A stretch of 64,000 nt of DNA from Christensenella sp. (GCA_034927595.1 JAYFPQ010000065.1:2994-66993), one strand, 5' to 3'. Counted from the first letter of the stretch, positions 15,681 to 18,705 are shown. Notes: generated by a model from the sequence alone, not told the origin. Program-made: numbers and translations.

Positions 15681-15698
15681 TTGTTCACATTCGAACAA
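15681..15698. promoter_or_regulatory. candidate Rex operator TTGTTCACATTCGAACAA
   Basis: 18-bp site with perfect 6-bp inverted arms (TTGTTC / GAACAA). It fits the Rex template TTGTnnnnnnnnnnACAA. It lies about 75 nt upstream of apbE, in the divergent fumarase/apbE intergenic region. Confidence 0.35.
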
Positions 15699-15771
15699 GA
15701 TTCTGCTCTTGCCATATCTCGATTCGCCGCTAAACTAACGGTATGGAAACACCCAAAAGGCGGTAGCTACG

Positions 15772-16710
15772 ATGAATGGAACGTTAAGCAGGTTATTTCG
15801 GGCACTCGGTACGATGAACACCATCACCGTGGAGCAGGCGGAGGATCACGCCCGCGCGGCGGACGCGCTGGAACGCGCCGAGCGCCGCGTGCTGGAGCTC
15901 GACGAGGTGCTCTCGGCGTTTCGTCCGGAAAGCGAGGTTTCGCTACTGAACGCCTCCGCCGGATGCAAGGAAGTTCCCGTCGGCGCGGACACGATGTTTC
16001 TATTAAAGGAAAGCAAGCGATATTCCGAATTGACCGGCGGCGCATTTTGCGTGACCACGCGCCCATTAAGCGCCCTCTGGGAACTCAACGCGCGTTGCGG
16101 CACCGTGCCGTCCCGTGCGGAGATTGAGCAGGCGCTGTTGCTCGCCAGCGACGAGGACATTGTGCTGGACGAGGAACACGGCACGGCGGCGCTCAAGCGT
16201 TTTGGACAGGCGGTGGACTTTGGCGGCATCGCGAAGGGATACGCCGCGGACGAGGTGCGCCGCATCCTGCTCGAAGGCGGGGTGACCAGCGCCTTGATCA
16301 ACCTCGGCGGAACGGTGATTTCACTGGGGCGGGAACGCAACGTCGGCATTCAGCATCCCGACCGCTGCACGGGCATCGCCATGGGGCGGGTCACGCTCTG
16401 CGACAACTGTGCGGTGACGTCCGGCGACTACGAGCGGTACTACGAGGTGGACGGCGTTCGATACCACCACATACTCGACCCGAGAACGGGATATCCCTCC
16501 CGCTCGAATCTGCGCAGCGTGACCTTGATCGGCGAGTCGGCAATGGAGCTGGACGCGCTCTCGACCGCGATCTTTGCGCTCGGCGCCGAAGATGGCCTGC
16601 CGCTGGCCGAGCAGGCGCGGGTGGAGTCCGTATTCGTAACGAACGCACTGGATGTCTTTTGTTCTGAGCACCTACGGGAGAACTTCTCTCTGTTGGCAAC
16701 GCCATCATAA
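15772..16710 (+). CDS. apbE: FAD:protein FMN transferase (ApbE), no signal peptide visible
   Basis: Motifs FRALGTMNTITV, SEVSLLN, VDFGGIAKGYAAD, YHHILDPRTG and DALSTAIFALG. Confidence 0.9.
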   Translation: MNGTLSRLFRALGTMNTITVEQAEDHARAADALERAERRVLELDEVLSAFRPESEVSLLNASAGCKEVPVGADTMFLLKESKRYSELTGGAFCVTTRPLSALWELNARCGTVPSRAEIEQALLLASDEDIVLDEEHGTAALKRFGQAVDFGGIAKGYAADEVRRILLEGGVTSALINLGGTVISLGRERNVGIQHPDRCTGIAMGRVTLCDNCAVTSGDYERYYEVDGVRYHHILDPRTGYPSRSNLRSVTLIGESAMELDALSTAIFALGAEDGLPLAEQARVESVFVTNALDVFCSEHLRENFSLLATPS

Positions 16711-16887
16711 GAAAGAATTTCGCGAAAAATTAGTTGAAAAGTCAGTATTGTGTATTGGTTACTGACTGTACTATAATTTTCGCATAACATAATAATGATT
16801 ATCAATATTACATGTGCGACAGGTCAATTCGAACTGGGTTTGCAAAACGAATACAGTGCGACCTTGGCAGCACAGAGGTTTGGTTTG

Positions 16888-18657
16888 ATGAAGAAGAAAT
16901 TATTCCATAAAATCACGGCGTTAACGCTCACGCGGCGCATCATACAGGTGCTGTCGTTTGTACTTTTTCCGGGGCTGTTTATCACTACCTTTTCGGCGAT
17001 CAAATCCATCTACGTCGCGCTGATTGCGGGAACGTTCAGCGCCTCCGCACTCGCGGGGCAGATTGTCCTCGCGGCGGCGATGCTGCTTATCACGGCGATC
17101 ATGGGGCGCTTCTTTTGCGGGTTCCTCTGCGCGTTTGGCACGATGGGCGACTTTTTCTGGTATTTGGGAACGAAGCTGAAGCTGCCTCGACCCAGGATCG
17201 GCTCAAAAGCAGATCGTATTCTTAAGAAACTGAAGTACGTGATTCTCGTGTTAATCGTACTCCTGATCTGGACGTTTGGCGCGACCATTCTGAACGGAAC
17301 GAACAACCCCTGGACGGTGTTTGGCATGTATGCCTCCGTCAAAGGCTGGGCGGATCTCTCCGCGCTGGTCTCCGTTGGGGCACTGCTGCTGCTGCTGATC
17401 ATCGTCGGCTCGCTGTTCATTGAGCGGATGTTCTGCCGCTATCTTTGCCCGCTGGGCGGCGTGTTTGCGATTGTCTCCAAGTTCCGGCTGTTCAAAATCC
17501 GCAAGCCGCGCACGAAGTGCGGCGCCTGCCGCGCCTGCACAAAGCGTTGCTCCATGGGCATTCCGCTGTATCGAACCAGTGTGGTGACGAGTGCGGAGTG
17601 CATCGATTGCATGAACTGCGTTGAAATCTGTCCGCGCGATAACGTGACGGCCAACCCCAAGCCCGCGTTCGCGGCGGCGGTTGCGGTTGTTGCACTCAGC
17701 GGCATGTACTACGTCGGCAACATTGCCGGCAGCGCAGCCGCGTCCTACCAGACGGTCACGGCGGCGGAGAGCGTCAGCAGCGCAAACACGGCGTCCGCCG
17801 GCCCGTTTGTGGACGGAAGCTATACCGGCAAAGCGGCGGGCTATCATGGTCAAACCTGCGTGCAGGTCACTGTTCAGAACGGCTATCTGGCGGATATCTC
17901 CGTTCTGTCGACGGGCGACGACATGGAGTTCTTTAACCAGGCAAAGAGCGGTGTGATCGCAGGGATTCTCTCCTCGCAGAGCGTCAACGTCGACACGGTT
18001 ACGGGCGCAACCTTCTCCAGCCGCGGCATCATCGACGCGGTGTCCAGCGCTATTTCCGGGGCACTTAAGACCAACAGCGACGTCTCGGTCTTTACGGCGG
18101 ACACGTCGAATCTGACGCCGACGCCCGTACTGACGCCAACGCCGTCTCCGGTGCCCACGCCTACGCCGACCGCGACGCCGGAGCAGACCAACGAAGGACC
18201 GATTACGCTGGCCGACGGCGAGTACACCGGTTCTGGCACCGGATTCCATGGAACGATAAAGGTTGCCATTACCATTCAAAACGGCTATCTCACGGGTATT
18301 CGAATTGTATCGTCCCATGACGATGAAAAATACTTCTCCCGCGCGAAAAGCAAAATGATCGAACGGATCATCTCCGCGCAGAGTCTGCAAGTGGACACGG
18401 TCTCCGGCGCAACCTACAGCAGCCAGGGCATTCTGGAAGCCGTTGCGGACGCGATTGGCAACAACTATCGCACCGCGTCAACCGCGACATCCGCGACAAC
18501 CGCGAAAACGGGGACGGTGGACACGGTTTCCGGTGCAACTACCATTAGTCGCGGTTCCGGCTCCAGCGCCGGTTCCGGCACCGGTTCGAGCGCATCGGGC
18601 GGCGGAACGAACGCAGCGGTCTATTATGACGACGATGATGACTACGACGACGACTAG
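16888..18657 (+). CDS. NapH-like membrane polyferredoxin fused to two FMN-binding domains, with a third short flavinylation motif and an acidic tail
   Basis: Motifs RFFCGFLCAFG and FCRYLCPLG. Two 4Fe-4S motifs (CGACRACTKRC, CIDCMNCVEICP). An extra TM helix follows. Two FMN_bind-like domains end in VDTVTGATFSS and VDTVSGATYSS, with a PT-rich linker between them. Start placed at MKKKLFHK. Confidence 0.8.
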   Translation: MKKKLFHKITALTLTRRIIQVLSFVLFPGLFITTFSAIKSIYVALIAGTFSASALAGQIVLAAAMLLITAIMGRFFCGFLCAFGTMGDFFWYLGTKLKLPRPRIGSKADRILKKLKYVILVLIVLLIWTFGATILNGTNNPWTVFGMYASVKGWADLSALVSVGALLLLLIIVGSLFIERMFCRYLCPLGGVFAIVSKFRLFKIRKPRTKCGACRACTKRCSMGIPLYRTSVVTSAECIDCMNCVEICPRDNVTANPKPAFAAAVAVVALSGMYYVGNIAGSAAASYQTVTAAESVSSANTASAGPFVDGSYTGKAAGYHGQTCVQVTVQNGYLADISVLSTGDDMEFFNQAKSGVIAGILSSQSVNVDTVTGATFSSRGIIDAVSSAISGALKTNSDVSVFTADTSNLTPTPVLTPTPSPVPTPTPTATPEQTNEGPITLADGEYTGSGTGFHGTIKVAITIQNGYLTGIRIVSSHDDEKYFSRAKSKMIERIISAQSLQVDTVSGATYSSQGILEAVADAIGNNYRTASTATSATTAKTGTVDTVSGATTISRGSGSSAGSGTGSSASGGGTNAAVYYDDDDDYDDD

Positions 18658-18672
18658 CGAGTAGGCGCTTCA

Positions 18673-18705
18673 CTCCCCTGCCAGAAACGGCGGGGGAGTT
18701 TTTTT
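18673..18705 (+). terminator. intrinsic terminator
   Basis: CTCCCCTGCC-AGAAAC-GGCGGGGGAG followed by TTTTTTT. Confidence 0.6.

Follow-up and report, generated by a model that had tools for sequence, protein, structure and literature searches.

Flavinylation by ApbE has been described as an extracytosolic modification, with an exported ApbE and exported flavin adenine dinucleotide (FAD) taken as the rule (PMC8238504, PMC12052999). In the NapH-like flavinylation systems, a multi-transmembrane iron-sulphur (Fe-S) protein with a Fer4_5 domain is clustered with apbE and with FMN_bind, and these systems have been proposed to deliver electrons from the cytoplasm or the membrane to covalent flavins (PMC8238504). 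In most of them, an exported ApbE accompanies either an N-terminal, signal-bearing FMN_bind domain or a secreted FMN_bind protein that is encoded separately (PMC8238504). Here we analyse a gene pair of this kind in a 64,000-nucleotide (nt) stretch of Christensenella sp. DNA (GCA_034927595.1, JAYFPQ010000065.1:2994-66993; the window, to whose first letter all coordinates refer unless a contig or locus is named). It consists of apbE and, downstream of it, a gene for a NapH/CcoG-like membrane polyferredoxin with two FMN_bind domains, here called the NapH-FMN protein. Judged by its domain content, the pair belongs to the published 'NapH-like' clusters and 'multi-flavinylated proteins' (PMC8238504), a kind already known: the PF12801 protein is clustered with FMN_bind and with apbE, which lies 177 nt upstream, and its two Pfam FMN_bind stretches each hold a D-x-x-[ST]-G-A-T motif. 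Unlike the surveyed majority, however, its FMN_bind domains are C-terminal, after a fifth membrane helix, and its ApbE lacks an export signal. The literature searched held no description of a cytoplasmic ApbE beside a NapH-like protein, and the systematic association with a clade of cytoplasm-facing ApbEs reported below appears to be undescribed there; it may have escaped the main survey (PMC8238504), because that survey filtered on signal peptides.

Other described systems resemble the pair in part. NosR and PceC/RdhC combine a NapH-like core bearing CX3CP and a cytoplasmic pair of [4Fe-4S] motifs with an ApbE-flavinylated FMN_bind domain across the membrane, but this domain is N-terminal there and C-terminal in the window protein. 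NosX, the partner of NosR, is exported. The NosR model NF046105 matched only the NapH-like part of our protein (model positions 493-661; 69.5 bits against a cut-off of 1000), and no nos or rdh gene was found near the pair. The domain order is that of the cupric reductase CcoG/FixG rather than that of NosR: CcoG likewise has a NapH-like transmembrane (TM) core, two 4Fe-4S motifs, an extra TM helix and a C-terminal extracytoplasmic domain (PMC7558416). In CcoG, however, that domain is immunoglobulin-like instead of FMN_bind, and the window pair has no cbb3 oxidase context; the CcoG model TIGR02745 covered amino acids (aa) 90-281 with 38.9 bits (cut-off 316.7), and FixG_C gave no match. The NapH/MauN architecture is present, with four TM helices, two CX3C(P) motifs, the first without its proline, and two cytoplasmic 4Fe-4S motifs. 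The corresponding models stayed under their cut-offs (TIGR02163, 88.6 bits against 213; NF007013, 78.5 against 234), and no nap genes for the NapG/NapC partners of a quinol dehydrogenase were found nearby.

The FMN_bind domains themselves are best compared with CbFMN4 and SaFMN3, which share the compact fold of about 85 residues, the modified motif threonine, flexible low-complexity linkers and a flanking apbE, but start with a secretion signal or an anchor and lack an Fe-S membrane module (PMC10339131). In Gram-positive Listeria, FmnB, the closest solved ApbE, is coupled to PplA, a protein with two flavinylated FMN_bind domains; both are lipoproteins, flavinylation takes place outside with exported FAD, and electrons arrive via Ndh2 and quinone, whereas the Fe-S module is fused to the flavin domains in the window system and MenA was not found in its genome. 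Klebsiella pneumoniae, in turn, carries a signal-less ApbE beside a lipoprotein ApbE in one genome, the former dedicated to a neighbouring substrate (PMC12052999). That substrate is a soluble cytoplasmic FMN_bind fumarate reductase, whereas the substrate domains encoded here follow a membrane helix and look extracytoplasmic.

The apbE gene (15772..16710, plus strand, as are all features of the pair) encodes a FAD:protein flavin mononucleotide (FMN) transferase of 312 aa. Its Pfam ApbE domain (PF02424) begins at residue 12 and matches model positions 1-265 of 266 with 251.7 bits (cut-off 25.6, E=1.2e-74), and its nearest relative in the PDB is Listeria FmnB (7esa, E=1.7e-53). Aligned with FmnB and T. 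pallidum Ftp (4xdt), it keeps the catalytic and FAD/Mg motifs GGIAKG151, HHILDPRTG232 and DALST261, and is predicted to act as a Mg-dependent transferase that places FMN on the motif threonines of its neighbour. A sequence-only reading of this stretch had noted that this ApbE has neither signal peptide nor lipobox, which proved correct: an in-frame stop lies 11 codons 5' of the ATG, the 11 open codons are non-hydrophobic, and therefore no room is left for a signal peptide, barring a frameshift. No N-terminal signal peptide was detected in the product of either gene. An upstream start or frameshift supplying ApbE with a signal peptide was considered and rejected, as the upstream frames of about 30 orthologous loci comprise 0-47 codons and are non-hydrophobic.

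The absence of an export signal is a property of the family. A profile-guided scan of species-representative genomes recovered at least 528 relatives of the NapH-FMN protein, among them proteins of the cultured Ruminococcus flavefaciens, Clostridium beijerinckii and C. carboxidivorans as well as of gut Christensenellaceae. The arrangement purA-fumB-fumA / apbE-napHFMN-HTH_Dfx is kept in about 25 Christensenellaceae species. In distant loci (35-48% identity) apbE is the sole neighbour retained, lying directly upstream in about 55 of 79, often with overlapping genes (Ruminococcus, Clostridium, Lachnospiraceae, Peptococcaceae, Olsenella and others). None of about 80 adjacent ApbEs, orthologous or distant, has a signal peptide or lipobox, and a maximum-likelihood tree unites all 77 adjacent ApbEs, drawn from across the Bacillota, in one group apart from the exported ApbEs (SH-like approximate likelihood ratio test support, SH-aLRT, 91). 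Among 16 genomes of the genus, the signal-less ApbE and the adjacent orthologous NapH-FMN gene are both present in 11 and both absent in 5; a lipoprotein ApbE is universal across the order.

Two further observations bear on the side of the membrane at which this clade works. The adjacent ApbE of Clostridium sensu stricto carries an anchor at its N-terminus (for example MNILLLIIILALIIMLILIV-RTDKSKKR) with no lysine or arginine (K/R) before the hydrophobic core in 8/10 cases and 2-6 after it, opposite to exported ApbEs, which have 2-5 K/R before the core. Because of this charge polarity and the positive-inside rule, the catalytic domain is predicted to be tethered at the cytoplasmic face. Moreover, in C. 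uliginosum DSM 12992, an Olsenella metagenome-assembled genome and genome G029, no ApbE but this one is encoded and FMN_bind is found solely in the NapH-FMN protein, so that the two must there be enzyme and substrate. We consider it likely that the adjacent ApbE serves the NapH-FMN protein from the cytoplasmic face. At least nine genomes, two of them complete chromosomes (G026, G027) and one the Christensenellaceae genome G003, pair a family member with exported ApbEs only, and there the FMN_bind domains must be modified outside. G003 holds only a paralogue of about 60% identity, with a near-identical fifth helix, and a lipoprotein ApbE only. Paralogues that share this architecture, about 60% identical and without an adjacent apbE, also occur at loci L049, L051, L034, L036-L041, L043 and L045, placed after a VTC / DUF4956 / Cthe_2159 / NAGPA cluster behind an open reading frame (ORF) of 101-142 aa, with an OmpR-type two-component system nearby.

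The NapH-FMN gene (16888..18657) encodes 589 aa within an ORF of 16795-18657. Its true start is likely the ATG at 16888 (MKKKLFHK), 31 codons into this ORF, because an AGAGG ribosome-binding site is found there and homologues begin there. The protein matches Fer4_5 (PF12801) with 47.9 bits (cut-off 22) and two FMN_bind domains with 97.5 bits; all 731 members of the homologue set used here combine Fer4_5 with FMN_bind. Four strongly to moderately hydrophobic TM helices (16939..17445; aa 18-40, 54-80, 115-136 and 158-186), assigned from hydropathy and charge counts, carry at predicted cytoplasmic helix ends the CX3C motif CGFLC(A) (17116-17130) and the CX3CP motif CRYLCP (17434-17451). The loop that follows, with its 13 K/R and probable cytoplasmic location, holds two 4Fe-4S motifs, CGACRACTKRC and CIDCMNCVEICP (17518..17634). 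Across 44 aligned homologues, 12/12 cysteines of the two CX3C(P) and two CxxCxxCxxxC motifs are invariant, and both FMN_bind motif threonines are invariant or nearly so. After a conserved fifth hydrophobic helix of marginal hydropathy, PAFAAAVAVVALSGMYYVGNIAGSAAA (17662..17742, aa 259-285), come FMN_bind domain 1 (17803..18063), with predicted flavinylated Thr375 in VDTVTGATFSS (17989-18021, aa 368-378), a Pro/Thr-rich linker (18103..18186) and FMN_bind domain 2 (18205..18462, the best Pfam stretch), with predicted flavinylated Thr509 in VDTVSGATYSS (18391-18423, aa 502-512).

The C-terminal region (18514..18654) consists of an orphan third motif, TVDTVSGATTI (18514-18546, aa 543-553), which has no FMN_bind domain around it, a Gly/Ser-rich stretch and the acidic tail AVYYDDDDDYDDD (18616-18654). 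The number of tail motifs varies in orthologues (four motifs in L012, three in L029); most other family members have a conserved ...FTNPNS... end followed by a Gly/His/Arg-rich basic tail. Because ApbE can modify a 7-residue tag (PMC12052999), the tail may present a third flavin, at Thr551, on a flexible arm.

An AlphaFold2 model built on the homologue alignment had a mean predicted local distance difference test score (pLDDT) of 67.5 and a predicted TM-score (pTM) of 0.44. Confidence was highest in the FMN_bind domains (pLDDT 80-89 for domain 1 and 87-93 for domain 2) and about 80 in the membrane core; residues 259-297 were modelled as a helix, and the linkers as disordered (below 50 in the Pro/Thr-rich one). 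Foldseek matched the two domains to 8p2b (CbFMN4 domain 1, TM-score 0.85, 36-37% identity) and 8p2a (SaFMN3 domain 2), respectively, with the motifs coinciding residue by residue, and gave no significant match for the membrane core, the FMN_bind domains alone being matched. In both crystals the motif threonine is covalently FMN-bound (PMC10339131). The sequence-only reading had described an ApbE adjoining a NapH-like Fe-S protein with multiple flavinylation targets, two 4Fe-4S motifs, two FMN_bind domains and a Pro/Thr-rich linker, and Pfam, the motifs and the structural matches bear this out. It placed the two threonine motifs correctly to within one codon, their exact ends needing correction, and overlooked the third DTVSGAT motif.

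Topology was called from hydropathy and charge heuristics throughout. K/R residues number 6 in the N-terminus, 0 in loop 1, 8 in loop 2, 1 in loop 3 and 13 in the Fe-S loop, and the C-terminal 304-residue part has 14 K/R against 30 acidic residues (D/E). Because of this positive-inside pattern, the N-terminus, loop 2 and the Fe-S loop are probably cytoplasmic and the FMN_bind part outside, as the sequence-only reading had supposed from the fifth helix and the Pro/Thr linker. The charge bias and the conservation of that helix (TM5) speak for the supposition, and a hydrophobic helix between the Fe-S and FMN_bind parts is kept in all family members, with P259, G272 and G277 invariant in the 44-homologue alignment. 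TM5 is marginal, however, so that the outside location is probable rather than certain. It has a KD19 hydropathy of 1.64 and a crude Hessa sum of +3.5, against -0.5 to -3.6 for TM2-4 and -1 to -3 for the anchors of the genome's other FMN_bind proteins. This weakness is conserved (family mean +3.85, n=119) and is greater where a cytoplasm-facing ApbE adjoins (+3.98, n=83) than in exported-only genomes (+2.06, n=11; Mann-Whitney p=5e-4, the samples being phylogenetically non-independent). Across TM5 the bias amounts to 2.2 K/R before and 0.5 after; it is +1.7 in the window's subfamily, close to the +1.9 of the exported-only group, and weak in distant members at +0.8. Also consistent with an outside location are the Pro/Thr- or Ser/Thr/Asn-rich linkers and the arrays of up to about 13 domains found in the family. 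LPXTG or other surface anchors were sought in family members as proof of that location, and none was convincing.

Long arrays are found in two giant proteins, one of 1259 aa with 8 SGAT-like motifs in C. manihotivorum CT4 (L149, 3890-7669) and one of 1799 aa with 14 such motifs in C. arbusti SL206 (L151, 3850-9249), each with a signal-less ApbE upstream and with motif arrays joined via Asn/Ser/Thr-rich linkers. The location of these 'flavin wires' is as uncertain as that of the window protein, because K/R-rich sequence follows the fifth helix beside a signal-less ApbE.

The window's own genome (G000, 92% complete) encodes a second ApbE, on contig C109, with a lipoprotein signal (...VLLLASLVGC); a search for such an exported enzyme had been proposed by the sequence-only reading. 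It belongs to a three-gene cluster (C109:1898-4055, minus strand; locus L002 1441-3598) with a NusG_II-domain protein and an Hpre_diP_synt_I ('Gx transporter'-like) membrane protein. This neighbourhood hints that the membrane protein partners the exported ApbE, perhaps in flavin delivery; in genome G026 (L177) an ApbE is fused to an Hpre_diP_synt_I-like membrane domain. Since the same genome also encodes RnfG and three other membrane-anchored FMN_bind proteins, it needs an exported transferase. In addition, C81:46462-47169 encodes a 4-TM protein that weakly resembles ferric reductase and cytochrome b561 and is fused at its C-terminus to an FMN_bind domain (DSVSGATNSS). It represents a second type of flavinylated membrane protein in this genome, one that is MsrQ-like. 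The lipoprotein ApbE makes available the simple reading that it modifies the NapH-FMN protein as well. It does not dissolve the topology puzzle, which is family-wide, because the signal-less ApbE is strictly co-inherited with the NapH-FMN gene and is the sole ApbE in some genomes.

The genome contains no TatC, TatA or MenA above cut-off, and its organism appears to lack both the twin-arginine translocation (Tat) pathway and menaquinone synthesis. With Tat absent, a folded, cofactor-loaded domain cannot be exported. Tat export of the folded flavinylated domain was accordingly rejected: TatC and TatA are missing, no twin-arginine precedes TM5, and TatC is absent from 10/12 module-bearing genomes. 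The lack of MenA also makes a quinol dehydrogenase role of the NapH-like core unlikely, and the 'quinol-oxidoreductase-like' role assigned by the sequence-only reading is doubtful on this ground and on that of the NapH models, which score far below cut-off. More plausibly, the 4Fe-4S clusters take electrons from ferredoxin or flavodoxin.

A model that reconciles the evidence for a cytoplasm-facing ApbE with that for outside domains is flavinylation inside followed by export. The apbE gene and its downstream neighbour would form a self-contained enzyme-substrate module, the ApbE clade acting at the cytoplasmic side of the membrane, as a soluble protein here and as a membrane-tethered one in Clostridium. 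ApbE would move FMN from FAD onto Thr375 and Thr509, and possibly onto Thr551 of the tail. Since a 7-residue tag suffices as substrate, ApbE needs no folded domain, and we infer that modification precedes export of the C-terminal part, probably on the unfolded chain. The weakly hydrophobic TM5 would then take the flavinylated part across via Sec, its weakness serving as a delay device. The finished conduit would lead from a low-potential cytoplasmic donor (ferredoxin or flavodoxin) through the two 4Fe-4S clusters and the CX3C/CX3CP cysteines of the 4-TM core to the covalent FMNs on a flexible, Pro/Thr-linked outside arm, and from there to an extracellular acceptor. By default we read it as a generic outlet through which electrons would reach soluble acceptors, flavins, metals or oxygen. 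This full chain, with cytoplasmic flavinylation and subsequent export, is our preferred reading but is put forward tentatively, at less than an even chance. We extend it with the same reserve to Tat-less Gram-positives at large: the ApbE clade could represent a second biogenesis route, flavinylating unfolded NapH-FMN_bind chains, including the 8-14-domain 'flavin wires' of Clostridium, before Sec export behind a weak TM5, with no need for FAD export.

To our knowledge, modification by a cytoplasmic ApbE followed by Sec export has no precedent, and several further points weigh against the proposal. The passage of a Thr-phospho-FMN adduct through SecYEG is likewise a putative step without precedent, and the Tat pathway, by which cofactor-loaded proteins are usually exported, is missing from this genome and from most of the module-bearing ones. 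At about +3.5 to +4 kcal/mol on the crude scale, TM5 would be a poor internal signal-anchor for a domain of 300 residues, or of 1500 in relatives. The topology calls are heuristic, the TM5 charge bias is reversed in the giant proteins of C. manihotivorum and C. arbusti, where K/R follow the helix, and the pTM of the AlphaFold2 model is low (0.44). Furthermore, a cytosolic ApbE failed to stand in for the periplasmic enzyme of Salmonella (review PMC12052999), and the lipoprotein ApbE of the present genome could modify an outside domain.

Several of these points would fit a simpler arrangement for the subfamilies that pair with a signal-less ApbE, the window's included: TM5 would not cross the membrane, and the FMN_bind domains would remain in the cytoplasm and receive their flavin there, like those of cytoplasmic fumarate/acrylate reductases. 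The domains would then be the electron entry to the Fe-S clusters, and the core would pass electrons to separate outside partners such as the genome's two single-TM FMN_bind proteins. Such an arrangement requires no unprecedented step and has a precedent in K. pneumoniae, where a cytoplasmic ApbE serves a soluble fumarate reductase with FMN_bind (PMC12052999). It agrees with an ApbE clade that faces the cytoplasm and is the sole ApbE in some genomes, with the lack of Tat, with a TM5 that is marginal and weaker beside a cytoplasm-facing ApbE than in exported-only genomes (in the non-independent samples given above), and with a charge bias that distant members show weakly and that L149 and L151 show in reverse. 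Yet a cytoplasmic tether would have no need of TM5 and its invariant P259, G272 and G277, which all members keep; the bias in the window's subfamily equals that of the exported-only group; and G003, with its lipoprotein ApbE only, holds a Christensenellaceae paralogue with the same marginal TM5. The Pro/Thr- and Ser/Thr/Asn-rich linkers and 8-14-domain arrays suit an extracellular wire better, the extra domain of NosR, PceC and CcoG lies opposite the Fe-S side, and FMN and Fe-S on one side would leave the 4-TM core without an evident acceptor in a genome without MenA. On balance we judge cytoplasmic retention only slightly less likely than modification inside followed by export.

If the domains do lie outside, the lipoprotein ApbE might flavinylate them, the adjacent ApbE being redundant or having another role (FAD binding or hydrolysis, or another cytoplasmic target). 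This exported enzyme exists and is needed anyway for RnfG and the three other anchored proteins, some genomes with family members have exported ApbEs only, and the outside is the textbook location of flavinylation (PMC8238504, PMC12052999). What it leaves unexplained is strict adjacency and co-inheritance at 80 or more loci in several families. It also fails in the genomes whose only ApbE faces the cytoplasm and whose only FMN_bind protein is the NapH-FMN protein; the adjacent ApbE keeps all transferase motifs, and no other protein of the operon or downstream carries a [ST]G[AS][ST] motif. We therefore hold this division of labour improbable. A signal-less ApbE that reaches the outer face non-classically, by co-export with its substrate or by lysis and release, is very improbable. 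The mismatch itself is what speaks for it, along with one Salmonella study in which ApbE function depended on periplasmic location (PMC12052999), but 67 sequences show no export signal, the polarity of the Clostridium anchors is wrong for export, Tat is lacking, and the module, whose neighbours vary by lineage, offers no transporter candidate.

The two co-oriented genes of the pair form one operon between a divergent fumarase-purA-purB block and a terminator. A consensus scan placed a promoter-like site, TTGCCA-16-TAAACT, at 15709..15736 (plus strand), both hexamers falling inside a conserved block of a 12-species spacer alignment. Upstream of the -35 box lies a Rex-operator-like palindrome, TTGTTCACATTCGAACAA (15681..15698, no strand assigned), read from the sequence. 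Among about 30 orthologous spacers it is confined to the three closest relatives (L010, L011, L017), and a Rex operator was rejected as conserved regulation on this ground. Other species have a TTCACAAnnTGACA block at the aligned position, conserved with the -35 and -10 boxes across the 12 species, which suggests a different or diverged operator. The apbE-napH spacer is unusually long, many other species having abutting or overlapping genes; it contains an 8-bp inverted repeat, AGTCAGTA(12 nt)TACTGACT (16740..16767, plus strand), followed by TATAAT at 16772-16777. An intrinsic-terminator-like hairpin (18672..18699, plus strand; 11-bp stem with 8 GC pairs, T-run) closes the operon. On its 3' side lie three genes that many orthologous loci retain; they encode a helix-turn-helix (HTH)-desulfoferrodoxin regulator, an FMN_red-like and a Flavodoxin_4 protein. 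FMN_red-like and Flavodoxin_4 families can serve as ApbE substrates (PMC10979944); no flavinylation motif ([ST]G[AS][ST]) was found in these or any other products of the operon or downstream genes.

Beyond apbE, the distant loci hold no conserved neighbour that would name an acceptor, the remaining genes being ABC transporters, GGDEF proteins, two-component systems and an iron-containing alcohol dehydrogenase (Fe-ADH), and no terminal reductase was linked to the pair in any lineage surveyed. In two Anaerovoracaceae/Lachnospiraceae loci, L047 (3188-3925, 6268-7572) and L048 (3385-5318), genes for a histidine kinase and an OmpR-type response regulator flank the apbE-napHFMN pair and may be its dedicated regulators. 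An apparent natural ApbE-NapH fusion in L135 was rejected, since the two genes do not share a frame and the 818 aa result from a GC-rich extension that is spuriously open.

The mismatch between a signal-less ApbE and outside-looking flavin domains is not explained by published models of bacterial flavinylation, and it concerns a widespread module, with at least 528 relatives in which ApbE, where it adjoins, lacks an export signal. Were the domains modified inside and then exported, this would constitute a new maturation route and imply that Sec can carry a bulky cofactor adduct. Were they to stay inside, the NapH-fused 'multi-flavinylated nanowire' proteins would not be extracellular wires, and their function would have to be rethought.

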